A DNA stretch of 32,139 nt from a virus. Under the pieces are notes generated by a model. It saw nothing but the letters and a program-made list of their open reading frames with translations. It made no database searches and had not been told where the DNA came from. The DNA lies in IMG/VR virus record IMGVR_UViG_3300045988_095662, positions 1 to 32,139 of that record; one strand, given 5' to 3'. Within the stretch, counting starts at the first letter, position 1. Every line of letters begins with the position of its first letter. Positions 1-32,139 of this stretch are shown here, one piece after another. The translations under genes and the position numbers were made by a program.

Positions 1-99
1 GACGCGACCGCCCGCGATGCGGCTTGCCGTGTCGCTGAAGATGGGGAACTGGCTATCGAAGCCGACAGAGTAGCCCTTGGTTCCCCATACCGGACAGCC
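1..99. repeat. Terminal direct repeat, copy 1 (identical to 32041..32139)
   Basis: Base-by-base comparison of the first 99 nt with the last 99 nt shows identity. Confidence 0.97.
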
Positions 100-771
100 G
101 TAAACCTCCATCTCTGAGGGCGACCAGACCTTGCCCAAGTCCGCCCAGCTCAAACCGCTCGATTCGGTGAGCTTTTCGCTCGAAGAATAGCGCTCTTCGA
201 GAAGCACGCGCTGCGCCATGATCGCGTTCTGAAGCGCGGTCGGCAGCGCTGGCAGGAAGTCGTTGATTTCCCAGTCGTGCAGCTTCGAAACCAAGTAAGG
301 GTGCTTTTCCTCGGCGGTACCGTTGTTGTCGTTCGTATCTCGCCACTGAAGATAGCTGGTGTTTGATGCCTTGTCTCCGGTGACGCTCACGGGCGCGAGC
401 GGCACCATGACGATATGGTGCCCCTTCGCTGTGTCGCCGCACTGGTAATAGTGGTCGATAGCGCCGATGCGGTAGCGCACCGTCTGCGACGGAACGTTAG
501 CGCCCGCCGTGATGGGAACGTCGATGTAATCGCCGATGCGAAGACCGGCGAAGTTGGCGCTTCGAGCGCGGTTCCGAAGCCATGTGTAAACGTCGGTGCT
601 CCCGATCTCGTTTGCGAAAACCGAAGCGAGCGAGCGCCCAGCGTAAGAGTTTGTGTTGTGCTGTCGGTCGTATTCCTCGGCAGTCGTTACGGCGTTCGCC
701 GTGTTGCGCGCAGAAGAATCCTTCAGATTGTAGGCGGTTCCGCCGATAGAGAACTTCGACAAGTCGGCCAT
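1..771 (-). CDS. DGR target protein, N-terminal 257 codons (putative receptor-binding tail protein); the gene continues across the junction to 31909
   Basis: ATG at 771..769 follows GGAAGGAG. I scanned every triplet 1..771 in this frame and found no minus-strand stop. The frame is continuous with 32040->31909. The gene lies directly downstream of the BppU-like fibre gene. It is missing from the ORF track because it crosses the window edge. Confidence 0.85.
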   Translation of the reverse strand, partial: MADLSKFSIGGTAYNLKDSSARNTANAVTTAEEYDRQHNTNSYAGRSLASVFANEIGSTDVYTWLRNRARSANFAGLRIGDYIDVPITAGANVPSQTVRYRIGAIDHYYQCGDTAKGHHIVMVPLAPVSVTGDKASNTSYLQWRDTNDNNGTAEEKHPYLVSKLHDWEINDFLPALPTALQNAIMAQRVLLEERYSSSEKLTESSGLSWADLGKVWSPSEMEVYGCPVWGTKGYSVGFDSQFPIFSDTASRIAGGRV

Positions 772-786
772 TGCTTTTCTCCTTCC

Positions 787-1785
787 TTAGTTGAGCGTCG
801 CCGTCTCGCCGCTCACGTTCGCCTGAGCGACGGTTACGGTCTCGCTAGAAAGTGCAGTGCGTCTGTTGGTGGGCATGTACGCCGTTTCGCCAAGGACTAT
901 GTAGCCGTCCTGTAGCTCCACAAGCGCCGTCGCAAGCGTCGCGTTCTCTTCGCGCAGCTCTTGCACCTCGTCATCTGAGGGCGGCTCGATAGAAGCGATA
1001 GAGTTTGCGATGTTAAGCGCGTTCTGCGCAGCGGCGGTGGCATCCTCCGCCGCGCCGTTTGCCGCAGCAGCGGCGGCGTTGGCGCTTGAAGCGGCAGTGT
1101 TCGCCGCGCTCGCGGCGGCGTTGGCGTTGGATGTTGCCGCGTCGGCGTTCTGCTTGGCGGTGTTGGCGGCTGATGCCGCGTTGTTCGCAGCCGTGGTTGC
1201 AGCGTCGGCGTTCTGCTTGGCGGTGTTCGCCGCCGAAGCTGCGCTTGTCGCCGAAGCTGCGGCATCGTTTGCAGCCTTCGCGGCGTTGGTCGCGCTCGTA
1301 GCAGCCGAGTTCGCCTTGCTCGCGGCGCTGTTCGCCGCGCTGGCCGCGCTGTTGGCTGAGCTTACGGCCTGATTGCCACGGTTGATGAGGTCTTGCACGG
1401 CATCGTCCCAGTTCTGCGAGGGCTGCTGCCCGTCAAGAGCGCTGCGCAGGATTTCGATTGCGAAGCGCTCCGTCGAATAGGTATTGCCGCTCTTCGTGAT
1501 CGTGAAATAGGCTTCGTCGGTGTAGCCGGACACGCTGCAAAGCTTGGATTCGTCAACCGTGATCGTGGCGGCGTTGCCGCTCACCGAGCACTGGCCGCGA
1601 TAGTAGTTGCGCTTGTTCGGCAGAAGCACGACAAGCCATGCGGTAGCGCCTGAAAGCGAGAACTCAGCGCCGTTGTCGTAGATAAGCGCCTTGATTGTGG
1701 TTCCGCCATTGTCGCCCTGACCAACCTTGACGCAGGTTCCCGCACCTTCTTTCGAAATATCGAGTTCAAGCGTTCTGGTGTTCAT
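787..1785 (-). CDS. BppU-like baseplate upper / tail fibre protein with an Ala-rich coiled-coil repeat region
   Basis: 332-aa ORF. The N-terminus resembles BppU N-domains (MNTRTLELDISKEG...). The centre is an A/S/N-rich heptad-like repeat containing a 63-bp tandem duplication. Position is the distal tail module. Confidence 0.7.
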   Translation of the reverse strand: MNTRTLELDISKEGAGTCVKVGQGDNGGTTIKALIYDNGAEFSLSGATAWLVVLLPNKRNYYRGQCSVSGNAATITVDESKLCSVSGYTDEAYFTITKSGNTYSTERFAIEILRSALDGQQPSQNWDDAVQDLINRGNQAVSSANSAASAANSAASKANSAATSATNAAKAANDAAASATSAASAANTAKQNADAATTAANNAASAANTAKQNADAATSNANAAASAANTAASSANAAAAAANGAAEDATAAAQNALNIANSIASIEPPSDDEVQELREENATLATALVELQDGYIVLGETAYMPTNRRTALSSETVTVAQANVSGETATLN

Positions 1786-1964
1786 AAGGAATCACCGCCT
1801 GAATCTCTGGCCGATATGACCGATTCCTGCATGGTAGAAACAAGCACGCTGATAGCGTCAACAAGATTGTTCGTATTCTGCACAAGCGCAGATACCATCT
1901 CCTTTAGCCCTTCCTCGTGCTCAACCGCAGCCGGCGGCGCGGCGCTTTGGGCTGTGTCTTCCAT
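1782..1964 (-). CDS. Small hypothetical tail-module protein (60 aa from ATG 1964)
   Basis: The ORF is coupled to its neighbours and its stop overlaps the next start. The start is uncertain (TTG 1982 or ATG 1964). Confidence 0.45.
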   Translation of the reverse strand: MEDTAQSAAPPAAVEHEEGLKEMVSALVQNTNNLVDAISVLVSTMQESVISARDSGGDSL

Positions 1965-1972
1965 GATTCCCC

Positions 1973-4099
1973 CTAACTCCAAGTCAAACTTTCGTGGAAC
2001 TCGCCGTTAAGCCACCCGAACCCCTTCGACCCGCAGCGGCATTGAACGCCGCTTGAATCAACCCTTATGTAATGGGTCGAATCGAACGCAAGCGTTGCAT
2101 GGCTCCCGGAGGTCATAGTCAGACGCGGGTATCCCTGATTCTTTGAATCTGTCGATTGCGGAGGGCTGAGGATGATGTAAGGGTTGCCGGTAGTTGCCCC
2201 CGAGTAATACTGCACGGCTTCGAGGAAGTACCGGCCTGTGTTTCTCATCCCAACGCCGTTGTCTACGAATCCCACAAGGTCGAACAGCTGCTTTCCTGAG
2301 CATTTGAAGCTGAACCCCGATTTTCCGTCGCTCGTCGCTCCGACGGTTACGTTCGTATCAGAGTTGCGGTAGCTCTCAATCTTGTTGGTCGATACGGTGC
2401 CGGATCGGATGTACTCACCGTTGATGTATATGCGACCGCCACTGAGATAGATTCCCTGTGTCTGGCCGTTGTTAGTCAGCTTGTTGAATATGTCACGCTG
2501 CGTCTGCGCACTGACGGCTGAGCTTGCCGCATTGGCGGCGATATCCTGAACTGTCTTGCCGCCAACCTCCGCACTTGCCGAAAGCGAGAACTCGCCGGTG
2601 GTCAAGTCCCAGAAGTTCTCGCCTTCCTCGTCCGTGAGAAGCCCGGCGCGCACTCGGTCTGCGCGCATCGTCCCAGCATTGATGCAGTCAGCCGTGACCA
2701 TTCCGCCCGTTAGGAAAGTCCGCCAGTCCCACGAGCCGTCGGATGCAAGACCGGAGGCAAGGCGCAAGCCCATTCCGTTTATGTTGATTGCCCACATGCC
2801 GGACGTGCTATTTAGCGGAAGGCCGGTATGCGCGTCGATGGGGACGTTAGACCATATGGTTCCAATCTCGAAAGTCTCAACCTTGTAGGTGCCCACTGCG
2901 TTGAACTGAGCGTTGAGCGCGGATTGAAGCTGCTGAAGCCATGAAACCGACGTTCCAGCCGCCGTGTCGTAGAGCGCGTTTTGCTGGCTGTTGCTCTTCA
3001 GGGCGCTGCTGACGCTCTGCCACATGTCGGCCATCGTGTCAGTAAGCGTGCCGAACGTCACGGTCGCGTCGCCGGTGAGCAAGTCGCGCTCAATCTGAGA
3101 CACGCGGCCATGAAGACGCACGCCCTCGGCAGAAAAGCCCTTGTCGATGATCGCCACGTCATCGCCAACGCCCACGCCCTCCCACGAGCGCCCGAAGGCG
3201 TATAGGTCGATAACCGAAGCGGTGTAGGTTAATTTCGGCTCCTTCACTTGCTCCAAGTAATCTTGCGTTTCCTGCAAGAGCTGCGCCGCGTCCTCGCACT
3301 GCTCGTTGACGTATGACGCGACGGCGGGAAGAATGCCGCCCTCGCCGTCAGGGTGCCCCCAAACGGCGGTTGCTTCTGCATCCTCCACGTAGTCTTTGCC
3401 GCCGTTTATATCGCCGAAGGTGAGACGGCGACCGTAGCCGCCGCCCTCAGTCTCAACGCCCTTGCCGTAACCGTAGACGCGCGTTTTCGGGTTGTCGCTC
3501 GCAACCGAGCGCTTGACGGAAACGAGGTCTTTAGTCCACGTGAACCGTTTTGCGCTGCTCTGGTTGCCGCGCTTGGCGCGCACTCCCACGCGGCGGCTAA
3601 CGATGCCCGCGCCGTCGTGGACGATGATCGTTTCAAGCTCGCCGCCCCATGTCTCGATGATTCCGGCCAAACCCTCGCGCACGCTCTCATGGTAGAAGGT
3701 GCGCGAAGCGCTGCCGCCCTGATCGCACGTGCCGACCTCCCAGCGCGTGTCTGCGAGAATGGATGTGAGGGCTACCGACACGCTGCCAGAAGGCCGCTTA
3801 TCGTCCAACCAGTCATCCCACGTCTCGTTTACCGAGTTGATGCAGACGGCTTGCGTCTCTGGCGCGCCGTCATCGTCGTGTACGCGGTCGATGGTGTCAA
3901 CGATGTGTTCGTGGCAAACTCCCTGAAGGTCAATCCAGACTACGCGGTCGCCCTTCACAAGGTCTTCGGCGCACGTGATGTTCAGTTCGTCGGTTCCGTC
4001 CAGCGCGTCGGTGTGCGTCGCTGCGCTCACCGTGAGCCGCCCCAGATTGTCGCCCCAGCGGTTGAAGCGGGTGAAGCCGATACGTCTAACTAAAGCCAT
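1973..4099 (-). CDS. Phage tail protein (Tal-like / prophage tail endopeptidase family)
   Basis: ~708-aa ORF immediately after Dit, the canonical Tal position. The start ATG 4099 overlaps the Dit stop. Confidence 0.75.
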   Translation of the reverse strand: MALVRRIGFTRFNRWGDNLGRLTVSAATHTDALDGTDELNITCAEDLVKGDRVVWIDLQGVCHEHIVDTIDRVHDDDGAPETQAVCINSVNETWDDWLDDKRPSGSVSVALTSILADTRWEVGTCDQGGSASRTFYHESVREGLAGIIETWGGELETIIVHDGAGIVSRRVGVRAKRGNQSSAKRFTWTKDLVSVKRSVASDNPKTRVYGYGKGVETEGGGYGRRLTFGDINGGKDYVEDAEATAVWGHPDGEGGILPAVASYVNEQCEDAAQLLQETQDYLEQVKEPKLTYTASVIDLYAFGRSWEGVGVGDDVAIIDKGFSAEGVRLHGRVSQIERDLLTGDATVTFGTLTDTMADMWQSVSSALKSNSQQNALYDTAAGTSVSWLQQLQSALNAQFNAVGTYKVETFEIGTIWSNVPIDAHTGLPLNSTSGMWAININGMGLRLASGLASDGSWDWRTFLTGGMVTADCINAGTMRADRVRAGLLTDEEGENFWDLTTGEFSLSASAEVGGKTVQDIAANAASSAVSAQTQRDIFNKLTNNGQTQGIYLSGGRIYINGEYIRSGTVSTNKIESYRNSDTNVTVGATSDGKSGFSFKCSGKQLFDLVGFVDNGVGMRNTGRYFLEAVQYYSGATTGNPYIILSPPQSTDSKNQGYPRLTMTSGSHATLAFDSTHYIRVDSSGVQCRCGSKGFGWLNGEFHESLTWS

Positions 4100-4827
4100 C
4101 GTTCCACCCACTCAAGAATCGCGGTGCCGTTAGTGATGTTCAGGTGGCATCGTCCGTTGATCTCGAAGTAATCCGAATCAATCGTTACCGGCGCGGTCTG
4201 GTTGTTTACCGTCGCGTGCTCGGTCGCCATGTCAAGCCGTATGGTGCTCGAAGACGTGAGCGCGGTATTGATAGCCACAAACTCGCCGGTATCGACGTTC
4301 GTAATCCGCCACGTGCTGCCAGCGGAGGGCTTCGCCGTGACCTTCAGGTAAGCGGGTCGGTTGCCGCCAGCGTTTACGTAGATGTTGCCAGCCGAAACCT
4401 CCATGCGGCGCTTCTGTCCGTAATAGTCGGGGTCGCCGATATGGAAAGTCACGGTTGTAGTCGGGCAATCGTCGGTGATCTCGTCAAGGTCGGTGCTGCC
4501 GCTCACGATTGCGAGCAGGTAGCGCGTCGGGTCATCAGGAAGGTAGAGCGGAGCTGGTTCGTCCGTCCAGAGAGCCGCCGCGAGCTTATGCCGCATCTCC
4601 GCGACCTCGCGGCGGTCTTCCGTCCTAAGCCAAATCTCAACGGGAAGGTCGTAGCCGCCACGGTAGGCGCTCTTGAAGACCTCGCCATGCCGCCCCGGCA
4701 CGCTCTCGAACGTCGCGTTGACGGTCGCCATGATGGGGCGGCGCACCTTGCAGTAAACCAGCTTCGATAGGTCGGTGCCGTTGAAGATGATTCGGTCGTG
4801 CTGGTTCCTAGTCCGTCTAAGTTGCAA
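4090..4827 (-). CDS. Distal tail protein (Dit, siphovirus tail component)
   Basis: 245-aa ORF directly after the tape measure gene. TTG start follows GGGGGGTG. The N-terminus (IIFNGTDL...) is typical of the phage tail family. Confidence 0.7.
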   Translation of the reverse strand: MQLRRTRNQHDRIIFNGTDLSKLVYCKVRRPIMATVNATFESVPGRHGEVFKSAYRGGYDLPVEIWLRTEDRREVAEMRHKLAAALWTDEPAPLYLPDDPTRYLLAIVSGSTDLDEITDDCPTTTVTFHIGDPDYYGQKRRMEVSAGNIYVNAGGNRPAYLKVTAKPSAGSTWRITNVDTGEFVAINTALTSSSTIRLDMATEHATVNNQTAPVTIDSDYFEINGRCHLNITNGTAILEWVERWL

Positions 4828-7471
4828 CTGGCACCCCCCTTTGCTTCAGCTTACTTGCGATGCCAGCGCCGATCTGCTGGCCTGTCTCGTATGCGTCCAC
4901 GCCGTCAGCGACCGTGGCGTAAACCGTCACGGCGACGTTAACGGGCTGGCTCGGCGTGTCGGCGAACCGCGAGAAGGCGCGGTTTACCGAAGTCTCGATG
5001 AAGCCTTGCAACTGCTTCTCAGGCGCGATGAACTCGCCGCCCGCTTCGCCAACGCCGACGATTGAAGGCTCATCGAAGTAGCCGCCGCGCGCGTACCAAC
5101 TGATGCTCACGCTCGGTAGTGAAATCGGGCCGAACTCGTTCCAGCTCACGTTGAAGTGCGGAAGCTTTGGCTTCGGAATGCTTATCTTGATTCCGCCGAA
5201 GGCGTTCATGATCTTCTGCGGAATGCTCGAAATCGCGTTCCATGCGCTTTCGATAGGGTTCTCTATGAAGCCCCGAATGCTGTTGAACACGCCCTGCACC
5301 TTCGAGCCAAGGCCGGGGAATCCCAGCTTGTCGCCGATTCGGTCTGCGATGCTAACCGCCGTGCTCTCGGCAGCGTCAAGCTTCGAGCCGATGTTGTCTT
5401 TAATCGCGTTGAAGGCGTTTGCCGCTTGGCTCTTCGCCGTCTCCCAGTCGCCGTTCATCGCGGCTTGCAGAGCGCCAGCCGCAGAGCTGCCAACCGTCTT
5501 CGCGGTGTTCATGTCGTTCTGCACCGTGGAAGCGATTTGCCCGAAGGCCGAATCGGTGTTGCCGGTTAGGTTGTTCCACCAGTTAGACACGGTATCGACC
5601 GCGCCTTGTGCGAGGTTCCCGACGTTGGTTTTAAGATCGTTCCAAGCGTTCGAAGCGCCGGTTTTGATGTTCTCCCAAGTGTCGGAAGCACCTTGCTTCA
5701 ACTGCTCCCACTTCTCGCCAACGCCGGTGCAGAAATCAGAAACGCCAGTGCTGACCTGCTCCCAGATTCCGCCCCAGAACTCAGGCACGCCAGCAAAGAA
5801 ATCCTGCACGGCTTGCCACTTCTCCGAAATCCAGCCGGTGAAGTCAGACCACATCTGCTTACCCGTCTCGGTCTGCGTGAAGAACCACGTAAGACCAGCG
5901 ACGGCGGCGGACACGGCGGCAACGCCAAGGGCGATAGGATGCGCGGCGATAAGCCCGGTAAAGCCCGTCCATCCGCTAGAGAGCGTGCCGGTGAGCATGC
6001 TTCCAAGACCGCCCGCCTTGGTAACGATGTTAGAGAAGCCGGTTCCGATTTTGCTTAGAAAGCCCGTATCGCCCATGAGCTTCTTAGCGCCGCCCCAAAG
6101 CTCGCCAGCGGTCTTGAAGGCGCTTCCCACGCCCTCTGCGGCTTCCATCGTCTTACCAACGGCTGTTGTCACGCCGCCGAAGGCGACGGCTCCTAGAGCG
6201 AGGTTGTTAACAAGCGTCTGCTGCTCTGGCGAAAGGTTCTTGTACCAGCCCGTGACGGTTTCGAGCGCGGGCGCGAGCGTGTTAAGAAGGCTCGTGCCAA
6301 TCTCGGTAACGGCAGTCTTGACGGGCAAGGCCGCTTCGCCGAGTTCCTGCATGCTCTGGTTCATCTCGTTCTGCGCGTCGCGCGAAGCGAGAAGGTCTTT
6401 GTTCGTCTCTTGGTACTGCTGTCCAGCTTCGCCGAGAAGCCCGTTGAGCGTTTCGGTGATGAGCGTAGACCGCTCTTGCTGGTCGCTGCACGACGCGAGG
6501 GCGGCGTTGAACGCGTCTTCTTTCGTCTGACCCTCTGCTATCGCTTGGTTGAACGCTGCTTGCGCGTCAGAGTTGCCGGAAAGCGCCGCGCTCCACTGAT
6601 CGGCGGAAATCTTCGACCAATTGAGGGCATCGGATAGGCCAGAAACGGCCTGTCCGGTGGAAGCGGCCTCTTGGGCACCCTCGGCAAGGTTGGTGATAGG
6701 TAGAGCGTCACCGAACACCGCAAAAGCGCCAGCGGCAATGTCTGTCCACTGTTGAAGCTCTTGCTCGTTCGTGGTCAGGCGCGCCAAGTTCTGCGCCGCT
6801 TCTGTCGCGGTGTCTTCCTCGCCAAGGATGCGGTAGAAACTCGAATAGACGCTTTGCGCCGTCTCGGCGGTGCTACCCGCCTGAGTGAACGCAACTTCGA
6901 GCTGACCGCTGCGCTGTATCGCTTCCTCTTGGCTCGATGCAAGGCCGGTGAGCGCGCCAGCCGCACCGATGATGCCGCCAGACAAAGCGGTTCCTGCGCT
7001 CGAAACCTTAGACCCGGCGTTTGAAATAGCGTCGGCGTTGTCCTCGATGGTCTGGCCGAGCTTGCCAAGCGCGGTCTTAGACCCTTCGGCCTGTCGCGCC
7101 GTGTCCGCAAGCTCGCTGCCGTAGCTGTCAAGCTGGCGCTCGCACTGCATGATCGCGCGCTTCAGGCTGTCGTACTGCCGTTCTTCCTGAGCCGTGAGCT
7201 GCGCGCCGCTCTGTTTCTTGCTCTCCAACTGCGCGAGCGCCTGCTTGTAAGCGTCAAGCTTCTGCTTCGTCTCGCCGTAGGCAGAGTTGAGCGCCTTTAC
7301 CTTCTGCTCTAGCAGCTCGGTGTTTCCGGGGTCGAACTTCAGCGCCTTGTTGATATCGCGCAAGTCGCTTTGGGTGTCGCGCGATGCTTGCTGAACCTTC
7401 TTCAGGGCGCTTTGCAGCTCGGTAGTGTCGCCGCCGAACTTGATAACAAGCCCCTTGTAAGTGACCGCCAC
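4817..7471 (-). CDS. Tail tape measure protein
   Basis: 884 aa, the longest gene. It has a coiled-coil N-terminus and a Gly/Ala-rich hydrophobic central region, and sits after the chaperone pair. Confidence 0.9.
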   Translation of the reverse strand: MAVTYKGLVIKFGGDTTELQSALKKVQQASRDTQSDLRDINKALKFDPGNTELLEQKVKALNSAYGETKQKLDAYKQALAQLESKKQSGAQLTAQEERQYDSLKRAIMQCERQLDSYGSELADTARQAEGSKTALGKLGQTIEDNADAISNAGSKVSSAGTALSGGIIGAAGALTGLASSQEEAIQRSGQLEVAFTQAGSTAETAQSVYSSFYRILGEEDTATEAAQNLARLTTNEQELQQWTDIAAGAFAVFGDALPITNLAEGAQEAASTGQAVSGLSDALNWSKISADQWSAALSGNSDAQAAFNQAIAEGQTKEDAFNAALASCSDQQERSTLITETLNGLLGEAGQQYQETNKDLLASRDAQNEMNQSMQELGEAALPVKTAVTEIGTSLLNTLAPALETVTGWYKNLSPEQQTLVNNLALGAVAFGGVTTAVGKTMEAAEGVGSAFKTAGELWGGAKKLMGDTGFLSKIGTGFSNIVTKAGGLGSMLTGTLSSGWTGFTGLIAAHPIALGVAAVSAAVAGLTWFFTQTETGKQMWSDFTGWISEKWQAVQDFFAGVPEFWGGIWEQVSTGVSDFCTGVGEKWEQLKQGASDTWENIKTGASNAWNDLKTNVGNLAQGAVDTVSNWWNNLTGNTDSAFGQIASTVQNDMNTAKTVGSSAAGALQAAMNGDWETAKSQAANAFNAIKDNIGSKLDAAESTAVSIADRIGDKLGFPGLGSKVQGVFNSIRGFIENPIESAWNAISSIPQKIMNAFGGIKISIPKPKLPHFNVSWNEFGPISLPSVSISWYARGGYFDEPSIVGVGEAGGEFIAPEKQLQGFIETSVNRAFSRFADTPSQPVNVAVTVYATVADGVDAYETGQQIGAGIASKLKQRGVPVAT

Positions 7472-7561
7472 GTAATCACCCCTCTTCGGTTGTCAAAGTC
7501 CCATGAGTGCTTGAAGCAACGCGCCCTCGCGGGTGCGCTGCCGTCAAGAACTCACTTCACG

Positions 7562-7843
7562 TCATGACCAGAACGCGGCTTCTGCCTTGCGCGCCTTCTC
7601 GTCCTCGTCGTAGTACGCCGCAGCGTCGGCGTAGAACGCGTTAATCTCCAGAAGGTCTTTAACCTGCCGGTAGCTCATCATCTGAAGGTCTGAGAGCGTC
7701 AGTCCGCATTGCTGGCAGTTGTAGATGTATCGCGCGTCGCACGCGTCTTGCAGGTTACTTGGAAGCGGCGGGGCTGGCCTTTTCGGCTCCCTCGGCTTCC
7801 ACTGCATCTTTCGCGGCGCTTGGAAAAAAGTTGTCCTCGACAA
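7562..7843 (-). CDS. Tail assembly chaperone, frameshift-extension (gpT-like) reading frame
   Basis: This ORF overlaps the 3' end of the upstream chaperone ORF (7755..8165) in another frame, between the major tail and tape measure genes. That is the conserved G/GT arrangement. Confidence 0.6.
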   Translation of the reverse strand: MSRTTFFQAPRKMQWKPREPKRPAPPLPSNLQDACDARYIYNCQQCGLTLSDLQMMSYRQVKDLLEINAFYADAAAYYDEDEKARKAEAAFWS

Positions 7844-8165
7844 TGCGCATCACGTCGGAAGCCCAACCGTCCCTGCGCTCCAAGTTGTACGCGTCCGGTG
7901 GGAAGGAAGAAACCCACTCATCGAATCCGATATCAAACTTCGGCGTTGCGGTCTTGATGCACGCGTAGAAGATTTCGAGCAGCGGGACGATAGCGGGCAC
8001 GTCGCTAGTCATGAGAGAACCGGCGATCTTGGAAACTGCGTCCGCAATGTCCTTCGGGCGCTTCCTGCCGCCCTCGACAACCTCATTGAAGCATCGAGAA
8101 TAGGCAATCGGCGTGAACGCGTTGAATGTCGCTTCGTAGCTCTTTTCGCCAACATTGATAAGCAT
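7755..8165 (-). CDS. Tail assembly chaperone (gpG-like)
   Basis: 136-aa acidic protein in the canonical position downstream of the major tail protein. Confidence 0.7.
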   Translation of the reverse strand: MLINVGEKSYEATFNAFTPIAYSRCFNEVVEGGRKRPKDIADAVSKIAGSLMTSDVPAIVPLLEIFYACIKTATPKFDIGFDEWVSSFPPDAYNLERRDGWASDVMRIVEDNFFPSAAKDAVEAEGAEKASPAASK

Positions 8166-8184
8166 TCGCTACCTCCTATGCGGT

Positions 8185-8772
8185 CTACTCGGTCTTGTGC
8201 GCAAGCTCGATATCGACCGCATCAAAGAAGGTGTCGTAATCGGCAAGGCCGGTGAAGCTGTCATAGCCGCTCGTGCGAATGTCGGTGCTCGGGATGGTGA
8301 CGGGTCGCCACGTGAACGGGTAATCGAGCTGCGTAATCTCCGGCGTATCCTGAATGGTGTTAAGCTCCTGCGTCGGCTTCGAGAGCTGGCACATGAGAAG
8401 GCAGCGGCGGCGACCGAGCACGTGCCCCGGCTGCTCGCACATGAAGGCGAACTTTTTAGGCGTTCGGTCTGCGCTCAGGATGGTTCGCCCGTCCTGCGCG
8501 ATCTCGTAGCCCACGAGGTCTGCGATGAGCTGGCGAAGCTCAGCCGTCCCCTCGGTGTCGTAGAAGCTCATGGTGCCGCTTCCGCCGTTGTCCTGCTGCT
8601 TGTCAAGCCAAACCTCGTTGTCGGCGTAGCTAGAAGCCGTCTCAACGGTCGGCTCCATGCTGATAGCGACGGTGCCCGCGACGTGCACGGGGTCTTCGTA
8701 GGTAAGCGCGTCTTCGTCGGTGCAGATCGCGAAATGCGAGTTCTTCACGCCGAAGAATCCGTTTCGTGCCAT
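8185..8772 (-). CDS. Major tail protein
   Basis: 195-aa ORF in the canonical position. The N-terminus (MARNGFFGVKNSHFA...) is typical of phi13-type major tail proteins. Confidence 0.8.
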   Translation of the reverse strand: MARNGFFGVKNSHFAICTDEDALTYEDPVHVAGTVAISMEPTVETASSYADNEVWLDKQQDNGGSGTMSFYDTEGTAELRQLIADLVGYEIAQDGRTILSADRTPKKFAFMCEQPGHVLGRRRCLLMCQLSKPTQELNTIQDTPEITQLDYPFTWRPVTIPSTDIRTSGYDSFTGLADYDTFFDAVDIELAHKTE

Positions 8773-8782
8773 TTGTTTTCTC

Positions 8783-9112
8783 CTAACTCTCGGCGACGTT
8801 CACGGTGAACGCCGCTTCGGTAAGCTCTTCTGAATCAATGTTCGTGATGCTCAGCGTGAACGGGCACTCTGCGGCTTCGAGTGCATCGCGTATGCGTTTC
8901 TCGGTCGCGTAGTCGCGGTGCCGCGTGTAGAGCGCGATATCGTAGGGCATCCACGAAAGGTAGGTGCCGTTGTCCGCGTAGGCCGCTTCGTTGTAGCCCG
9001 CGACAAGGCAGATGAAGGGCGGTGCCGGTTCCTCACCGTCAGCGAAGCGCTGGTTAGCCCACGGGATGCCGAGCGAATCGAGAACGCCGCAGAGCGCCTT
9101 TAGCTCAATCAT
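8783..9112 (-). CDS. Tail completion / head-tail joining protein (109 aa)
   Basis: The ATG at 9112 forms an ATGA overlap with the upstream stop. The longer 165-aa version is an Arg-rich extension that overlaps the previous gene. Confidence 0.6.
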   Translation of the reverse strand: MIELKALCGVLDSLGIPWANQRFADGEEPAPPFICLVAGYNEAAYADNGTYLSWMPYDIALYTRHRDYATEKRIRDALEAAECPFTLSITNIDSEELTEAAFTVNVAES

Positions 9113-9480
9113 CGTCCGTCGCCCCCCATCTCCGCGAACTCTCGCGCCACTTGGTCTGCAACCTTCCTGATAACGCCGTCGCCGGGAACGGTGCCGTAAT
9201 CCTCGCCAGTCTGGTTCGTGATCTGGTGGCCGTTCTCCAACAGGTGCGTTAGCTGGTATCGCCGGTTGTGCACGGTGCATTCGGTGCCCGTCTCATCGGT
9301 CTTAACGTCGGCCTTCCAACCCTTCTTGTAAGCACCGGTGCGCACCTTGATTTCTTGCTTCAACAGCTTTACGGCGCGCCTTCCGGCTTCGCCCGCGTTC
9401 TCAGCGAGCGCGGAAACGTTGTCTTCCACGCACTCTTTCATGCAGCTGCTTATGAACCGCTCGATGCTCTGCTCAGCCAC
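9109..9480 (-). CDS. HK97 gp10-family head-tail component
   Basis: 123 aa. Size, order and the HNRRYQLTHLLENGH motif are typical of the gp10 family. Confidence 0.7.
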   Translation of the reverse strand: MAEQSIERFISSCMKECVEDNVSALAENAGEAGRRAVKLLKQEIKVRTGAYKKGWKADVKTDETGTECTVHNRRYQLTHLLENGHQITNQTGEDYGTVPGDGVIRKVADQVAREFAEMGGDGR

Positions 9481-9784
9481 GGTCGCCCACCACCTCAGCG
9501 AGCGTCAGGCGCACGAAGTCGGGGCTTGACCTGTCAACGCGCGCGACCGTGAGCCGCGCGCCGTCGAACTCGACTAGCCGCTCACCTTCGTATGCGCTCT
9601 TGCGAATCTGCAATACGGCTTCGGGGTGTACGCCAGCGGCAGCGGCGGCGTAATAGGCCGCGTCGCCCATAGAGAAGACGTTGCAGAACACCTTGCGCTT
9701 TGTTTCCTCCGTCTGCTGCACGCCGTATTCGTCCTTCTTGACGGTCTTAGCGATGAGCTGGCACGTGCCAGCCCACATGCTCAT
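9473..9784 (-). CDS. Head closure / head-tail adaptor protein
   Basis: 103 aa, in the canonical position after the gp6-like connector. Confidence 0.65.
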   Translation of the reverse strand: MSMWAGTCQLIAKTVKKDEYGVQQTEETKRKVFCNVFSMGDAAYYAAAAAGVHPEAVLQIRKSAYEGERLVEFDGARLTVARVDRSSPDFVRLTLAEVVGDRG

Positions 9785-10083
9785 TTCACGCCCCCGAACT
9801 CCGAGCTGCCGCGCATCATGGTTAGCAGATCGTCGAAGCTCTGAGTAAGGCGGTCGGCATCGGGGTTGTCCATGCCGAAGTTCGCCTTGCAGTAGACCTT
9901 CACCGCGAGCCGAACCGTGCTGTTCGAATCGTCGGCGGCTACGGTATCGGCAACGCCGCCCGCGCGCATCGCGGCGCGGGCGGCTTCGATGAGGTCTTCG
10001 ATCTCAGCGTCAAAGTCGGTGCAGTCGGCGGGAATCCTCAGCGCTTCGCGGCACGCGTCAAGCAGCTTCGGCTTCTCTGCCAT
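9781..10083 (-). CDS. gp6-like head-tail connector protein
   Basis: 100-aa acidic helical protein immediately after the capsid gene. Confidence 0.65.
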   Translation of the reverse strand: MAEKPKLLDACREALRIPADCTDFDAEIEDLIEAARAAMRAGGVADTVAADDSNSTVRLAVKVYCKANFGMDNPDADRLTQSFDDLLTMMRGSSEFGGVK

Positions 10084-10097
10084 CTGTCACCACCTCG

Positions 10098-11378
10098 TTA
10101 CTTTGCGGCGGTGCCGATGGTGAGCTGTCCGAAAGCCTTAGGCACGACAAGGCCGCCGTCAAAGAGCAGGTAGCCGTCAAAGCAGCGCTTCTGCGTACCA
10201 GGCTCGACATAGGGCGTAACGTCCACGCCGTCGAAGATGTTTCCACGGAACAGGTCGGGATAACCAGCCTTGATGATGCCATCTGCCATAGAATCGTCGC
10301 GCTTAACGAGCTTGCCGAAGATATGACCCTCAACGGCGGGGTCTTCGGTCTTCTCGTCCACGAAGTAAGAGCGCCCGTTGGCATCCTCGACCATAGCAAT
10401 GTGGTTCCAAATAGTGTTGCCGTTGGCGTAGATAATGCAGCCCTTCGGCGCAGGGTTGCCGTAGGTGTAGAGCAGGCCGAGAAGCTTGGTAATATCCGCC
10501 TTGGCAAGCGTTCCAGCGGTGGCGCAGTTAATCTTGTTGCCGGAATCCATGCCGAGCGTGCCATCAACAGTCTTGGCGTGGACACGCGCGTTGGCGGCGA
10601 CGGCAAGGCGCGCGCCAGTCTCGTTGACGATGTACTGCTCAAAGCCGTTGATAGACTGAACCGCCATCTTACGGCTCATCTTCACGGTCTTCTTGATCTC
10701 CTCGCCCGTAAGGGTGATGGGGTCGAACTCGTTCTGCTCCTCATCGGCGGGCGCGGCTCCCTCGTCGGTCTTCGCAGCGTCGCCAGCCTTGATGCTCTTA
10801 TGGCGGATAAGCTCGAACTGATGCGGGAAGTTGTCCTTGTGGATATCTCCGTAGAGAACAGCTGTGTTGTCAATCAGCGTGAAAATCTGCGTCTGAAGCT
10901 CGACGGGGATAACCGCATCGGTGTTGCTGGTCAGATGCGTGAACGCGGTGCGGCGCTCGACAAGCGCGTTGTAAGCGTCGCGCTCAACCTGCGTGAAATC
11001 GGTACCCTCGATGAGCTGCACGCCGCTCCGGCGGGCAATGTCTTTCACCCAAGCGCGGCGGGCGGCGGCGTTGTAGTCGGTCGTGTCGCGCACCTGCGGC
11101 AGAGCCCCGCGAGCGCTCGCGGAAGTGCCCAGCGGCACGGCATCGACGCGGCGGGCGCTGCCGTTCTCGATAGCGGCGCGCGCGGCGGCGACGGTCGCGG
11201 CGTGGCTGTCGCGGCGCTGCGCTGCGGCGGCGTTTCGCTTCTCGATCTCGGCGGTAAGCGCGCTCATGCGCTCAGCGTCCTGCTCGCTCGGCTCAGCATC
11301 GGTGCCGTCATCGGCCTTGTACTTGTCAACAAGCCCCTGAAGCTCGTTAAGCAGGTCATCCATAGTCAGTTCGTCCAT
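10098..11378 (-). CDS. HK97-family major capsid protein with N-terminal delta/scaffold-like coiled coil
   Basis: The start ATG 11378 lies just after the protease stop at 11383. The gene follows the prohead protease. The 458-aa version overlaps the protease gene. Confidence 0.88.
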   Translation of the reverse strand: MDELTMDDLLNELQGLVDKYKADDGTDAEPSEQDAERMSALTAEIEKRNAAAAQRRDSHAATVAAARAAIENGSARRVDAVPLGTSASARGALPQVRDTTDYNAAARRAWVKDIARRSGVQLIEGTDFTQVERDAYNALVERRTAFTHLTSNTDAVIPVELQTQIFTLIDNTAVLYGDIHKDNFPHQFELIRHKSIKAGDAAKTDEGAAPADEEQNEFDPITLTGEEIKKTVKMSRKMAVQSINGFEQYIVNETGARLAVAANARVHAKTVDGTLGMDSGNKINCATAGTLAKADITKLLGLLYTYGNPAPKGCIIYANGNTIWNHIAMVEDANGRSYFVDEKTEDPAVEGHIFGKLVKRDDSMADGIIKAGYPDLFRGNIFDGVDVTPYVEPGTQKRCFDGYLLFDGGLVVPKAFGQLTIGTAAK

Positions 11379-11382
11379 TGTC

Positions 11383-12018
11383 CTAAACCTTTCTGCTCTT
11401 GGCGATTGCCAGTGTTGCCCTAGCGATTGCAAGGGCGCTCTTACGGCGCGCAAGCTCCTTGCGCGACTGCTCAATCACTCCGTTGAGCAGGTTTCTTGCT
11501 GAAATCTCCGTATTGGGGTCAGCCGGAAGGCTCACCGCCGACACGTCGAAAACCTTTTTGACGCGCGTAATGGTCGTGGTGTGCGTGTCCCGGTCGTATT
11601 CGTCAGCGCCCACGCTGAAAGCCCACGACATGCGCGTGATAAGGCCGTTAGTAATCTCTTCGTAAAGGTCGCGCGCGGCCTGAGAGCCGCTAAGGTCTGC
11701 CGCGATGAATAGCCCGTGCTTGTCAGGCTCGACAATGAGCGTGTTGTTGCTCATGCGCGCAAGCACCTTGCCCGCATGGTCGTACTGCATGATAACGTCG
11801 CTCATGTCCGCGCCGTCGAAAGCGCCGGGGTCGATGATCTCGCGATACTCGTTGCCGTCCCAGTCGGTGAAAAGCACGTATGGGTCGTTGAATGTCGATG
11901 CGTAGCCCTCGACGTAGTAATCGGTGTCAAAGCGCTTGTTCGCGCTTCCGTCAGCCGTCCGCACGTTGAGCGGCACGGCAAGGGAACGGTATTGCCGCTC
12001 ACTCGGTTTCGCTGGCAT
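11383..12018 (-). CDS. HK97-family prohead protease
   Basis: 211 aa with AAGGAGG upstream of the ATG. It lies between the portal and capsid genes. Confidence 0.85.
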   Translation of the reverse strand: MPAKPSERQYRSLAVPLNVRTADGSANKRFDTDYYVEGYASTFNDPYVLFTDWDGNEYREIIDPGAFDGADMSDVIMQYDHAGKVLARMSNNTLIVEPDKHGLFIAADLSGSQAARDLYEEITNGLITRMSWAFSVGADEYDRDTHTTTITRVKKVFDVSAVSLPADPNTEISARNLLNGVIEQSRKELARRKSALAIARATLAIAKSRKV

Positions 12019-18947: not shown

Positions 18948-20126
18948 CTAACCCGCCGCGCGGCGCTTCGCTTCGCTGAAGAGCTGAGCTGCCGCCGCGT
19001 CGCGTCCGGGCATCAGGTGGCCGTAGATTCGAAGCGTCGTTGCTTCGTCCGCGTGCCCCATGCGCTCAGATAGCGTCTTCAGGTCGCAGCCGTTGGCGAT
19101 AAGCCACGAAGCGTGCGTGTGCCGCAAGCTGTGAAACGTGATCTCTCGCGGCAGTCCGCATGCGTCTCGTATGCGGCTGAAAGCCCGTGAAATCGTCGTT
19201 GGGCGCATGTAAGAGCCGTCTAGCGTCACCAGCGGGCAATCAGCGCCCAAGCGCCCCAGAACGTCGCTCTGAAGCTTCGTGAAGGCATCAATAACCGCGA
19301 TATCGTCTTGCGTAAGCGCGATGTTGCGGCACTTGCGGCCTTTTGTCACGTTGCGGCGATAGGGCTTCTTGCCCTTGCCCTCAATGACGTTGCCGCCGAC
19401 GTGGACGTAAGACATGGCGCGCTTAACGTCGATGCGCTGCACCGCGCAGACCTCGCCAACGCGCATTCCGGTAACGAGCGACAGCCACGAAGCGAAGGCG
19501 TAGACGGCGGCGCGGTAATCGGCTTTCGTCTCAATCTCCTTGCTAAGCGCGCCCTCTAGCTTCCCGTTGAAGCCCTCGAAGTCCCATTCGGTGAGCGCCG
19601 AAGCTTCGTGCCGTTCCGGCGATGGTTTGGCGACGTACACCAGCGGGTTAGCGTCGCAAATGCCAGCGTCTACGAAGTGGTTATAAGCGCCGCGCAAGAA
19701 GTTGTGGACGTTGATAACGCTGTTGCGGCAAAGACCTTGCCCGCCTTCATCCTTCGCCATGAGCAAGCGTTGCTCAAAGCGGTTGAAGTCCATAACGCCA
19801 AGATCGCGTGCGTTTGCGGTCTTCAGATAACGTGCGACGTAGCGGCAAAACAGCCGATAGCTCTTAATGCTGTTCGGGCTTGCGCCGTTGCGCTCCCTCA
19901 GTTGCACGTAATCTTCGAGCAAATCGGTCAAGCGGTCGCTTCTAACCGTTCCGTCAGCCGTCACGTAAGCCGCCCACGTCTCAGCGAGGGCTTGCGCTTC
20001 CTCTTCGGTTGCCGCATTCGGAAACCGCTTGTAAGGGCGAATCGCCTTGCCGTCGATGCTGCGCCCAAGGTACAACCGGCACTCGAAAACGCCATCTGCA
20101 CCGCGCTTGACCTTAACGCCCATCAT
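18948..20126 (-). CDS. Tyrosine recombinase / phage integrase family
   Basis: C-terminal catalytic region ...RVGE...HSLRHTHASWL...GHADEATTLRIYGHL. ATGA overlap with the upstream small ORF. Confidence 0.9.
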   Translation of the reverse strand: MMGVKVKRGADGVFECRLYLGRSIDGKAIRPYKRFPNAATEEEAQALAETWAAYVTADGTVRSDRLTDLLEDYVQLRERNGASPNSIKSYRLFCRYVARYLKTANARDLGVMDFNRFEQRLLMAKDEGGQGLCRNSVINVHNFLRGAYNHFVDAGICDANPLVYVAKPSPERHEASALTEWDFEGFNGKLEGALSKEIETKADYRAAVYAFASWLSLVTGMRVGEVCAVQRIDVKRAMSYVHVGGNVIEGKGKKPYRRNVTKGRKCRNIALTQDDIAVIDAFTKLQSDVLGRLGADCPLVTLDGSYMRPTTISRAFSRIRDACGLPREITFHSLRHTHASWLIANGCDLKTLSERMGHADEATTLRIYGHLMPGRDAAAAQLFSEAKRRAAG

Positions 20127-20344
20127 GACCACTCGCAGTTTTCACGAATCCGCGAAGGGCAGTTATCGTCGTGGCAGTCCGCGCAATCCAACTGCTCTTT
20201 CCTGATGTGGAACTCAACGATTCGGTACTTCAGAGAAAATCGGATGAGCAGCAGCAGGGCATGAGCAAGCGAGTTGGTAAATTGACCGTCCCAGAACGGG
20301 CAAAGTCCGCTCATCGCGCCGCGAACCTCGTACTTGCCGCCCAT
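20123..20344 (-). CDS. Small Cys/His-rich hypothetical protein (73 aa)
   Basis: The ATG lies 1 nt after the upstream stop, and the stop overlaps the recombinase start. Contains CADCHDDNC...C. Confidence 0.45.
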   Translation of the reverse strand: MGGKYEVRGAMSGLCPFWDGQFTNSLAHALLLLIRFSLKYRIVEFHIRKEQLDCADCHDDNCPSRIRENCEWS

Positions 20345-25190: not shown

Positions 25191-25282
25191 AAAACCCTGC
25201 GCGGCTTCTTGGCGGTCGGCGCGCAGGGCAAGTGCAAAGAACGAAGCGCATTAGCGCACTCGCTCTAAGGGGTGATTTTAGC

Positions 25283-28025: not shown

Positions 28026-28716
28026 AGAAGCCCCCTCTGATGCAGTAGAAGTAATGAAAATCGACCTGCTCTAGCTCTTCGAGCGTGAAGGCGCGCGCGG
28101 AGTTCCCAGCGCTCGCCGGGTCGCGTATCCAGTAGCCGTCATCGTCGGCGCGCCAGATAAGCACGACGTGCCCGCCGTAGTCCCTATCGCCGAGCGTTCC
28201 GCTCATGCCAGCGAAGGCAAGCCACCCATCGGACACGTTTTGAAGGACGGGTGCGAGATCGTAAGAAATCGGCGTGCTCTCGATGCCGTATTCCGGGTAA
28301 TGCTCGGCAATCCACGCGCAGAACTTGCCGGGGTCGTTAACGCCATCGGTAAGGCACGTGTCACCCACGAACGATGCGAGCGTGAGCGGCGTAATGTCCT
28401 GAAGCGTCATGTATTTGACAGCCATAGCGGCGCATGTAAGGCCGCAGCCGTGGTAGCCGATGGTGCCGCCCGCATATGGTATGTAGTCCCATTGCGGGTC
28501 GGTCTGAAGCCATATCGGCATGCTGTTACCCTCGGCAATCGGCCTATCGGCAACGATTGCTAGGCGGTCTTCCTCAGCGGCAGCGTAGCCCTCTTCGCGC
28601 GCTTCAGCGAGCGCGCCCGCGTCGCTCTCGATATGGCCAACGATGAGCCAGCCGCAGAAGAGCATTGACGCGAGCGCGCCGGAAAGCACGAGGGCGACAG
28701 CCTTTAGCCTACTCAT
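28006..28716 (-). CDS. Signal-anchored papain-like (peptidase C39-like) cysteine peptidase, probable second lytic enzyme
   Basis: N-terminal TM segment (AVALVLSGALASMLFCGWLIV). GCGLTCAAMA catalytic-Cys context and a downstream GGH. It lies between the holin and the GH25 lysin. Confidence 0.65.
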   Translation of the reverse strand: MSRLKAVALVLSGALASMLFCGWLIVGHIESDAGALAEAREEGYAAAEEDRLAIVADRPIAEGNSMPIWLQTDPQWDYIPYAGGTIGYHGCGLTCAAMAVKYMTLQDITPLTLASFVGDTCLTDGVNDPGKFCAWIAEHYPEYGIESTPISYDLAPVLQNVSDGWLAFAGMSGTLGDRDYGGHVVLIWRADDDGYWIRDPASAGNSARAFTLEELEQVDFHYFYCIRGGFYGTQRH

Positions 28717-29943: not shown

Positions 29944-31053
29944 TTAGCTGAAGAGCTGCTTATAGAGCGCGTCCATGCGCCTTACCGTCTCGTGAGCGTC
30001 AAGCCGCTTCATGCCTCCGCGCCACGATTGGTAAGACTGGTTGACTTGCTCGACGGTCATAACGCCGCGAGCGACCAGCGCCGCTTGCTTCTTCAGCTTG
30101 CGCCGCTGTCGCGTCACGGAAGAGCGGCAAGGGCGAACAACCACCTTTTCACCCTCGCCATATGAAAACCTCTTCTTCAGGAACACGAAGCCGCGCGACA
30201 GCTTCACTACGCGCGTCTTCTTGCGGTTGATGATGATTCCCAGATCGTCGCAGAGCGCTTCGATGCGCGAAAGCGCGTCCCAAAGCGTCTGCTTGTCAAG
30301 CGCGATGCAATAGCTATCGTCCATGTAGCGACCGCTCGCGAGGATGCCCGGAAGCGAAAGCATCAGATGGTCTATCGGCGACGGCAAGGCCACCGCTAAA
30401 ATCTGGTTCGGCTCGCTGCCAAGACCAAGCCCGCGCGCGCCGTGAGCGTCTATCTGGTCGCCCATGACGCGCTTAACGCGCTCATCGTCAATGGCTCTGT
30501 CGATGATGCGCTTGCAAGCGTCGTGGTCGATGTTCGCGAAATAGTCCGAGAAATCGACCTGCAAGATGTAGCCTTCCGTCCCGTGCTTTCGCCGGTGGGC
30601 TACAAGCTGACGCTTCATGCGCTTGATTGCGTACTCGGTGCCGCGCCCCTTCACGTTTGCGGCGCATCCCTCTGTCAGGGTAGGCCAGATCGCAGGTGCG
30701 AGCGCGTGACGGCTTAAAGACTTCTGTATGACACGCTCCGAGAAGTGGACAGAGCAGATATGACGAAGCTTTCCGCGCTCGAAAAGGTCAAACTCGATGA
30801 AGCCGCGCCGGAAGTCAGCGCCCGTGAGCAGGTCGCGGCGCGCCCGCATGATGTTTGGCATGACGCGCCCCATGTAGCGCTGAACGCTTGCCTTCCAGCG
30901 AACGCCCGCAGCAGCGCCGTTCGCCGCACTGTATAGGTTATCGAGGTCTGCGACGGCTTCTAGCGTGCATCCTTCGATGCGCCTAGCCCTATTCTCCGCG
31001 CGCTTGGCATCTCGCCTTGCGCGGCGTGCTGCGCGTCGCTCTTCAGAGTTCAT
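29944..31053 (-). CDS. DGR reverse transcriptase (369 aa)
   Basis: YMDD box encoded at 30327->30316. Also LQVDFSDYF and other RT palm motifs. Start chosen at ATG 31053 (MNSEERR...) because the longer ORF would run through the spacer toward TR. Confidence 0.92.
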   Translation of the reverse strand: MNSEERRAARRARRDAKRAENRARRIEGCTLEAVADLDNLYSAANGAAAGVRWKASVQRYMGRVMPNIMRARRDLLTGADFRRGFIEFDLFERGKLRHICSVHFSERVIQKSLSRHALAPAIWPTLTEGCAANVKGRGTEYAIKRMKRQLVAHRRKHGTEGYILQVDFSDYFANIDHDACKRIIDRAIDDERVKRVMGDQIDAHGARGLGLGSEPNQILAVALPSPIDHLMLSLPGILASGRYMDDSYCIALDKQTLWDALSRIEALCDDLGIIINRKKTRVVKLSRGFVFLKKRFSYGEGEKVVVRPCRSSVTRQRRKLKKQAALVARGVMTVEQVNQSYQSWRGGMKRLDAHETVRRMDALYKQLFS

Positions 31054-31421
31054 GAGGGCACCCCGCGCGGCTTGCAGTCGGCATCCAGCAGCCGCTTGAC
31101 GGTTGACCATGAAACGCGGTCGGAAGCCGAGAACCGCGCCATGCAAGCAGCGAACGGCAACCGTCGCGGGGTGCATATTTACGGGCGCATGCCCGATGGT
31201 CGCCCCTTCCTTCCTCAAATGCACGGCGCGCGGCGCTTACGGCCGCGCGGTCTGGCAAAGCTTGGGAATCACGGCAGCGGGCGTATCCAGTCGTTCGTCG
31301 GCGCGTTGTTGTTGGCATTGCCGTTGTTGTTGACATTGCACGCGTTGGACGCAGAACCACCCATGACAGACCGCAGCCACCAATTGACGCGACGATTTCC
31401 AAGGGACAACTCGCGAACATT
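31054..31421 (-). ncRNA. DGR template RNA region (TR plus 5' and 3' flanks / spacer)
   Basis: Non-coding stretch between avd and the RT. It holds TR and a GC-rich spacer with an 8-bp hairpin (31227..31249). Confidence 0.6.
31265..31393 (-). repeat. DGR template repeat (TR), 129 bp
   Basis: Aligns without gaps to 31920..32048 (offset 655). It is adenine-rich on the minus strand, with 11 AAY codons in the VR frame. Confidence 0.92.
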
Positions 31422-31832
31422 TTACCCCTTTCCTATGAGTTTCACTCCAGCGCGAGCGCCCTTTATCAGCTTAATGTCGCTGTCGATTCGGTCTAGGATT
31501 CCTTCGAGCCGCGCGGCCTTGATGGGAAGCCCCATAGTCAGAAGGCTTTGCATGTCTTGGTAGAGATGGTTTAGGTCTGCCAGCGCAAGCGTCATGTAGC
31601 GCTTCCGCTCATCGACGTTGCGCGGCGTGTTCGGATAGAATGCGTCGGCCTTAACCAGATTGAAGACAACGCTTCGCGCCGTCTCTGCCATAGGCACCGC
31701 GAAGATGAATCGGTAGGATTTCGGAACGTCGCGCGACGTTACAAGGCGCGTCACGTCGTTTCTGATCGCAACCGCCGTGTTGAAATACTCGAAAGAGCTT
31801 AGGTTGCGGTTGCGCATGTATACGCCGCTCAC
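31422..31832 (-). CDS. avd: Accessory variability determinant (Avd-like four-helix-bundle protein)
   Basis: 136-aa helical basic protein between the target gene and TR. AGGAGG lies 9 nt upstream of GTG 31832. Size and position match Avd. Confidence 0.75.
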   Translation of the reverse strand: MSGVYMRNRNLSSFEYFNTAVAIRNDVTRLVTSRDVPKSYRFIFAVPMAETARSVVFNLVKADAFYPNTPRNVDERKRYMTLALADLNHLYQDMQSLLTMGLPIKAARLEGILDRIDSDIKLIKGARAGVKLIGKG

Positions 31833-31862: not shown

Positions 31863-31885
31863 GGCGCATGCGCAAGGCATGCGCC
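31863..31885 (-). promoter_or_regulatory. GC-rich hairpin downstream of VR (candidate DGR target-recognition cruciform)
   Basis: ggcgcatgc (31863..31871), 5-nt loop, gcatgcgcc (31877..31885). It lies 23 nt after the target stop codon. Confidence 0.6.
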
Positions 31886-31908: not shown

Positions 31909-32139
31909 TCAGCCTATGAGGAAGCACGGCAGCGGGCGTACCCAGCGGTCCGCCGGCGCGGTGTGGTTGGCAGTGCCGTTGCTGCCGACAGGGCACGCGC
32001 CGGACGCAGAACCACCCATGACAGACCGCAGCCACCAAATGACGCGACCGCCCGCGATGCGGCTTGCCGTGTCGCTGAAGATGGGGAACTGGCTATCGAA
32101 GCCGACAGAGTAGCCCTTGGTTCCCCATACCGGACAGCC
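31909..32139 (-). CDS. DGR target protein, C-terminal part including VR (32041..32139 duplicates 1..99)
   Basis: The frame is continuous with 1..771. Hand translation: ...GGRVIWWLRSVMGGSASGACPVGSNGTANHTAPADRWVRPLPCFLIG, with stop TGA at 31911..31909. Confidence 0.85.
   Translation of the reverse strand, partial: GCPVWGTKGYSVGFDSQFPIFSDTASRIAGGRVIWWLRSVMGGSASGACPVGSNGTANHTAPADRWVRPLPCFLIG
31920..32048 (-). repeat. DGR variable repeat (VR), 129 bp, codons ~255-298 of the 300-codon target
   Basis: 17 mismatches to TR, 16 of them at TR adenines on the minus strand. Confidence 0.92.
32041..32139. repeat. Terminal direct repeat, copy 2 (identical to 1..99)
   Basis: Direct comparison. Confidence 0.97.

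Follow-up and report, generated by a model that had tools for sequence, protein, structure and literature searches.

What is encoded by the gene that runs off both ends of the virus contig IMGVR_UViG_3300045988_095662 (IMG/VR), and is it the target of the diversity-generating retroelement (DGR) that lies beside the break? The whole record of 32,139 nucleotides (nt) was analysed and is referred to below as the window. A first-pass annotation, made from the letters and a mechanical list of open reading frames (ORFs), had proposed that the window junction conceals a DGR target gene coding for a putative receptor-binding protein (RBP) of 300 amino acids (aa). The reading that we consider highly probable is that the window is the complete circular genome of a temperate siphovirus of Coriobacteriia, opened inside the target gene of a BPP-1-style DGR, and that this target, a DUF6273 protein, occupies the RBP position of the tail module.

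The two ends of the window carry an exact 99-nt direct terminal repeat (1-99 and 32041-32139), so that the circle measures 32040 nt once one copy is removed. An ORF on the minus strand begins at ATG 771-769, reaches base 1 without a stop, resumes at 32040 and ends at TGA 31911-31909, giving a joined gene of 903 nt and 300 aa. All coordinates of this frame had been given correctly in the first-pass annotation, and its suggested check, dropping the 32041..32139 copy and calling ORFs again, returns the same 903-nt, 300-aa ORF. The gene is missing from the mechanical list because ORFs that run off an end go unlisted; what the list holds instead, as had been pointed out, is an Arg-rich ORF in the wrong frame (53-442, minus strand) and plus-strand shadow ORFs such as 415-915. 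The wider claim that linear annotation misses the gene holds for this list, but an edge-tolerant gene caller would give two fragments.

Homology confirms that the joined gene is real and not a chance ORF. A protein search returned 716 homologues. Of the 120 best, most have a length of exactly 300 aa, are 60-95% identical to the target at 100% query coverage and carry PF19789, so the length proposed from the letters is borne out. The homologue with the top bit score (P0001, 394 aa, NCBI) was considered as a longer isoform and rejected: it contains two internal tandem duplications of target segments and is probably a misassembly.

The 300-aa ORF would be nothing more than two partial genes if the terminal repeat joined unrelated sequences in a chimeric or mis-circularised contig. 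The overlap is just 99 nt, a common assembler k-mer length, and the continuity of the junction, like the heterogeneity of the variable repeat discussed below, was judged from assembled contigs. Yet at least eight independent contigs match a 5.5-kb segment across the junction in one unbroken alignment at 96-97% identity. These colinear sequences span 32040/1, and in one of them, the 133-kb contig of the isolate Gordonibacter sp. An230, the region is interior. A 128-kb contig from ENA (L001) also has the gene order of the circularised window: tape measure protein, Dit, Tal, a small ORF, BppU, the 300-aa target, a 131-aa ORF and the reverse transcriptase (RT), followed by genes for a CBM_5_12 protein, a holin, a C39 peptidase and a GH25 lysin. 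The homologues, moreover, share the 300-aa length over their full extent. The colinearity across the junction already refutes the chimera, to which we give practically no credence, and the continuous circular genome is retained in what follows.

The joined gene had been taken to be a DGR target, and this stands: it carries the only variable repeat (VR) of the window, and an Avd-like protein gene, the template repeat (TR), an RT-2 RNA and the RT follow it. A second VR in the window was looked for and rejected, as the best match at non-adenine positions (48/101) is at background. TR and VR differ at 17 positions, 16 of which are adenines in the TR; the changes thus affect 16 of the 28 TR adenines but just one of the 101 remaining bases (Fisher p = 4e-12). 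Of 132 related loci, 127 have a TR with adenine-biased mismatches at a distance of 500-600 nt past the stop codon of the target.

Variation among relatives falls on the same sites. In a set of 44 homologues that are 300 aa long and at least 80% identical, the 14 codons with TR adenines have a mean column entropy of 2.41 bits; the remainder of the VR averages 0.19 bits and all other columns of the protein 0.26 bits. Most of the variable positions accept 7-15 residue types among close homologues. When the window is compared with nine relatives whose flanks are about 97% identical, the 27 TR-adenine sites (gene nt 772-873) differ in 151 of 243 comparisons (62%) and other sites of the gene in 194 of 7884 (2.5%), an odds ratio of 65. 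Taken with the contig breaks described next, this would suggest, indirectly, that the DGR is active in the lineage or was so recently.

The position at which the contig opens also coincides with the VR. Its first TR-adenine site is 32040, and the right repeat copy starts at 32041; the 99-nt overlap is therefore the last stretch common to all VR variants, because it ends one base before that site. To judge from this repeat edge, VR heterogeneity probably broke the assembly here, at a population-level branch point of a k=99 de Bruijn graph. Seven related contigs, six from IMG/VR and one from a metagenome-assembled genome, end within the VR at residues 265-286 (L014, L113-L117 and L145), which implies heterogeneity within the samples, and three more (L024, L143 and L144) end at most 10 nt past the target stop codon; the locus search behind these counts is biased to contigs that hold the middle of the target gene. 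Whether the hypervariability of DGRs itself decides where circular phage contigs open is a question on which we are evenly divided.

The final 19 nt of the VR form an element like the initiation of mutagenic homing (IMH) sequence. At 31269/31924 the VR has TGC (Cys296) against TGA in the TR, which in the VR frame is a stop codon. All 127 related TR/VR pairs share this fixed A/C difference, a divergent subfamily having it in a codon that reads GGA/GGC, and Cys296 is invariant among close homologues. This constancy and the position 3' of the G/C-rich run lead us to take adenine 31269 as the IMH/IMH* difference and not as a mutagenised site, and for the same reasons the TR stop codon was rejected as a source of truncated variants. 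The sequence pattern suggests that the IMH-like element behaves as the IMH/IMH* pair of BPP-1.

A hairpin lies 34 nt past the end of TR/VR homology, within the 76-nt gap before the Avd-like gene. Hairpins with the same loop motif are found in 127 of 132 related loci, with a nearly invariant apex (GC-CTTGC-GC) and stem sequences that vary. In a comparison of 29 distinct sequences, both partners have changed at 8 of the 11 base pairs, and the covariation score of 0.462 (0.123 in shuffles) was equalled by none of 500 shuffles, with slid controls far lower. An intrinsic terminator was considered and rejected: no T-run follows the hairpin, and a terminator scan predicted none. Homing in BPP-1 requires a hairpin with a GC-rich stem of 7-10 bp and a 4-nt GRNA loop, located 4-34 bp from the VR (Guo et al., PMC3240598). 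The stem and distance seen here are within these ranges; the loop is a 5-nt CTTGC and not GRNA. The structure is thus a candidate for the DGR target-recognition hairpin or cruciform. On the antisense strand the invariant loop reads GCAAG, which is G..AA-like, and its departure from the consensus may point to a different mode or orientation in which the target site is recognised.

The small protein encoded between the target and the TR has an AlphaFold model that is a four-helix bundle (pLDDT 83). Foldseek against the PDB placed 2gsc and 2rld at the top, and superposition with the Avd of BPP-1 (4dwl) gave a TM-score of 0.82 (TMt) and a root-mean-square deviation of 2.2 Å. The entry 2rld was deposited as a member of the S23 ribosomal protein family; we take both 2gsc and 2rld to belong to the Avd family (23S rRNA intervening-sequence protein, PF05635). 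A 99%-identical protein is already named 'Avd-like' in one database source, and Pfam, PHROGs and NCBIfam hold no family for the protein.

The spacer between TR and RT is filled by a match to the Rfam RNA RT-2 that begins 5 nt past the TR. The related motif RT-10 occupies the TR-RT spacer of BPP-1, and other RT motifs were speculated to belong to other DGRs (Weinberg et al., PMC5737381). The present locus places RT-2 with RT-10 as the spacer RNA of a bona fide DGR. The start of the RT is likely ATG 31053, as called in L001; the GTG at 31224 in the ORF list overextends the protein, because that region is taken by the RT-2 RNA. The RT matches the profiles RVT_1 and phrog_1423 (E = 5e-64) and aligns over its full length with Brt (E = 1e-18).

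Directly downstream of the RT is a gene (29419-29865, minus strand) for a 148-aa protein with two CBM_5_12 modules, which is conserved in L001. After it come genes for a Peptidase_C39_2 protein (28006-28761, minus strand) and a GH25-CW_7-LysM lysin (26961-28025, minus strand).

The cassette is best compared with mtd-avd-TR-brt of BPP-1. In both, the target gene is followed by a small accessory gene (its product here a predicted four-helix bundle), the TR, a structured spacer RNA and the RT. In both the VR lies at the 3' end of the target, TR-to-VR changes are adenine-specific and the TR holds AAY codons, and both have a G/C-rich IMH-like boundary with a fixed TR/VR difference and a GC-rich hairpin past the VR. 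The RTs are alike, as the Brt alignment and the YMDD motif indicate. The differences are that the target here is a DUF6273 protein with no detectable sequence similarity to Mtd, that the accessory protein resembles Avd only at the level of fold, that the spacer RNA is RT-2 where RT-10 is reported for BPP-1, and that the hairpin has its 5-nt loop in place of the 4-nt GRNA and stands at the upper end of the distance range. The cassette here is attached to a TP901-1-like siphovirus tail module in phages of Coriobacteriia, whereas BPP-1 infects Bordetella. The tail of BPP-1 is short and podovirus-like.

Following the BPP-1 paradigm, we propose that the TR and RT-2 spacer RNA would be transcribed and that the RT, with the Avd-like four-helix protein, would make complementary DNA (cDNA) in which TR adenines are copied unfaithfully. 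This cDNA would replace the VR, with its 3' boundary set by the G/C-rich IMH-like element and with homing aided by the hairpin downstream of the target gene. About 14 codons (258-291), including the 10 AAY codons, would be randomised. In theory some 10^14 protein variants could arise at the tip of the protein, and the phage may thereby track changes in the host receptor.

The diversified protein belongs to a domain family that is known among DGR targets. Pfam DUF6273 (PF19789) matches target residues 142-294 with 37.2 bits (gathering cutoff 23.5), and all 81 aligned family members match it as well. The fairly confident AlphaFold model of the target (pLDDT 84.8, pTM 0.84) was compared by Foldseek with BFVD, where 27 phage proteins were matched at E <= 1e-3; DUF6273 proteins are frequent among these, and some carry the label receptor-binding protein or tail-collar fibre. 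DUF6273 has been described as a domain of DGR targets in which the VR lies C-terminally (PMC10743442, PMC11792537, bioRxiv 10.1101/2024.10.15.618418), PMC11792537 giving the domain and the VR position, and structure comparison has led to its description as C-lectin-like with a proposed role in receptor binding (PMC10743442; bioRxiv 10.1101/2024.10.15.618418).

The first-pass annotation had likened the C-terminus of the target to the C-type-lectin-like tips of other DGR targets and had suggested a structural comparison with folds of the Mtd/TvpA type. The lectin likeness is supported only indirectly, by this literature, and our own comparisons did not reproduce it. Foldseek against the PDB returned neither Mtd nor TvpA, and no match emerged when the target family was compared with BPP-1 Mtd by hhalign. 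A profile search of the family against PDB sequences gave only chance matches to cytochrome oxidase (E about 0.06), PHROGs and NCBIfam contain no family for the target, and Pfam at E <= 5 showed no weak DUF1566, FGE-sulfatase or lectin matches in any of the 81 members. We therefore file the protein as a DUF6273 DGR target and leave its tie to C-lectins to the literature.

Among solved structures, the sole significant fold match by Foldseek is PDB entry 9qa6, the immunoglobulin A (IgA) peptidase of Thomasclavelia ramosa (E = 1.8e-5 over 287 columns), whose N-terminal domain is called DUF6273 by the authors of the entry. In contrast to the phage protein, this is a domain of a cellular, cell-wall-anchored protease without a link to a DGR, and as the global TM-score is low (0.36) the two share architecture only. 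Likeness is also found in the DUF6273 DGR targets of gut phages (nd4/nd12 target2; the Faecalibacterium phages Lelie, Roos and Pioen; Toutatisvirus), which have the same domain and a C-terminal VR. The phages studied here differ from these in their host clade (Collinsella, Gordonibacter, Olsenella and Adlercreutzia), in having one target per genome and in the 300-aa architecture placed after BppU, with BppU fusions in some relatives.

The link between the VR and a tail protein, which had been proposed from the sequence, is borne out by gene order, as the target comes directly after the genes for the tape measure protein, Dit, Tal and the BppU_N protein, and by fusions in relatives. P0054 (510 aa) and P0064 (470 aa) consist of BppU_N and an Ala/Asn-rich coiled coil fused to target residues 28-300; in other relatives only the first 30-45 residues are swapped for different N-terminal modules. 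Distal tail adhesins typically show rearrangements of both kinds. In TP901-1-like baseplates the slot after BppU is held by BppL, the receptor-binding protein. The order here is the same as the Dit-Tal-BppU-BppL of Lactococcus phage TP901-1, for which we draw on established knowledge, with a small distal protein in the BppL slot. The distal protein differs in being a DGR-diversified DUF6273 protein without a match to the lactococcal RBP families. The BppU_N protein itself has Ala-rich repeats with a seven-codon period (1028-1356), which suggests a coiled coil.

Host receptor binding is argued here from gene position and fusions, and the diversified protein might instead be an accessory adhesin for mucus or some other non-host ligand, such as a tentaclin or Hoc-like decoration. 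DUF6273 does occur in DGR-targeted Hoc-like and tentaclin proteins, and its presence as the N-terminal domain of a bacterial IgA peptidase would fit a general binding module. The target, however, is only 300 aa long and has no Ig-like repeats. It sits in the BppL/RBP slot right after BppU, to which it is fused in some relatives, and the stretch from Tal to the DGR cassette offers no other RBP candidate. We therefore think an accessory role unlikely and prefer to regard the target as the probable RBP.

Several observations weigh against the reading as a whole. Besides the contig-level view of the junction, the gene-context case for receptor binding and the fold and profile comparisons that missed Mtd and TvpA, these are (i) the one TR/VR mismatch outside adenines, a G to C (TR 31292 / VR 31947) that stands beside a mutated adenine and takes GAC to CGC at codon 289; (ii) the RT motif LGSEPNQ, where Brt has IGSLTSQ (N for S) and the usual form ends in SQ; (iii) the Avd-like protein, for which sequence, profile and hhalign searches brought up neither BPP-1 Avd nor any PDB chain, and whose Foldseek E-values are weak, as expected of a four-helix bundle; and (iv) the hairpin loop, which on the sense strand departs from the consensus in both length and sequence, when the complementary loop CTTT abolished function in BPP-1 (PMC3240598). 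All four could also be marks of a decayed or inactive DGR, in which case the TR/VR differences would be relics and the target an ordinary tail protein that no longer diversifies. Against decay, all parts of the cassette are intact and are kept in 127 of 132 related loci, phages with nearly identical flanks differ far more often at TR-adenine sites than at other sites of the gene, and contigs break repeatedly within the VR. Decay thus seems to us very improbable, and a DGR that probably is, or recently was, active remains the reading that we carry forward.

The close relatives of the window are prophages of Collinsella (including C. aerofaciens and C. stercoris), Coriobacteriaceae, Gordonibacter sp. 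An230, Olsenella, Adlercreutzia and Senegalimassilia; megablast of window positions 1-12000 against GenBank phages gave no match. The window also encodes TerL, portal and capsid proteins and a lysis cassette. Two recombinases are present, a large serine recombinase with Resolvase, Recombinase and Zn_ribbon_recom domains (25082-26860, plus strand) and a tyrosine integrase (18948-20132, minus strand).

Table 1. Coordinates of the terminal repeat, the target gene, the DGR cassette and the neighbouring tail genes in the window.
Feature	Position	Strand	Remarks
Left repeat copy	1..99		within target gene (gene nt 673-771); circularisation overlap
Right repeat copy	32041..32139		inner edge 32041 abuts first mutable VR adenine site 32040
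Target gene, 5' part	1..771	-	codons 1-257, ATG 771-769
Target gene, 3' part	31909..32040	-	codons 258-300 and TGA 31911-31909
Shine-Dalgarno GGAAGGAG of target gene	779..786	-	
VR	31920..32048	-	129 nt, codons 255-298 of 300; 32041-32048 = window 1-8
IMH-like VR 3' end	31920..31938	-	14-nt G/C-rich CGCCCGCTGCCGTG (31938-31925), then C 31924; TR has A 31269
Hairpin GGCGCATGC-CTTGC-GCATGCGCC	31863..31885	-	perfect, 9-bp GC-rich stem, 5-nt loop
Avd-like accessory protein	31422..31832	-	136 aa; 131 aa with start used in relatives; predicted four-helix bundle
TR	31265..31393	-	129 nt, 28 adenines, 10 AAY codons in VR frame
Rfam RT-2 RNA (RF03077)	31038..31260	-	100.5 bits, full length; fills TR-RT spacer
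DGR reverse transcriptase	29944..31053	-	369 aa from ATG 31053; YMDD, LGSEPNQ
BppU_N (upper baseplate) protein	787..1785	-	immediately upstream of target; Ala-rich repeat, 21-nt period
Tail tip protein Tal	1973..4111	-	Prophage_tail
Distal tail protein Dit	4090..4827	-	Sipho_tail, SPP1_Dit
Tape measure protein	4817..7471	-	

A BPP-1-style DGR acting on a DUF6273 tail protein is a known class, and the understanding of how DGRs work is unchanged by this locus. Three additions are of moderate interest: a contig break that coincides with the VR edge, a hairpin loop that varies from the consensus, and a bona fide DGR whose spacer RNA is RT-2. The practical consequence is that circular contigs should be rejoined before genes are called, which matters for surveys of DGR targets in viromes, as the hypervariable regions of DGRs can put the contig break inside the very gene of interest. 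If this were general, contigs of DGR phages that are classed as complete and circular would be cut preferentially within target genes, and linear annotation would systematically under-report DGR targets and their link to tail proteins. For the phages of Collinsella and related Coriobacteriia, which are common bacteria of the human gut, the locus provides a well-resolved DGR on a DUF6273 tail-tip protein with a full list of parts, including the IMH-like element, a covarying hairpin, the RT-2 spacer RNA and an Avd-like protein of divergent sequence.

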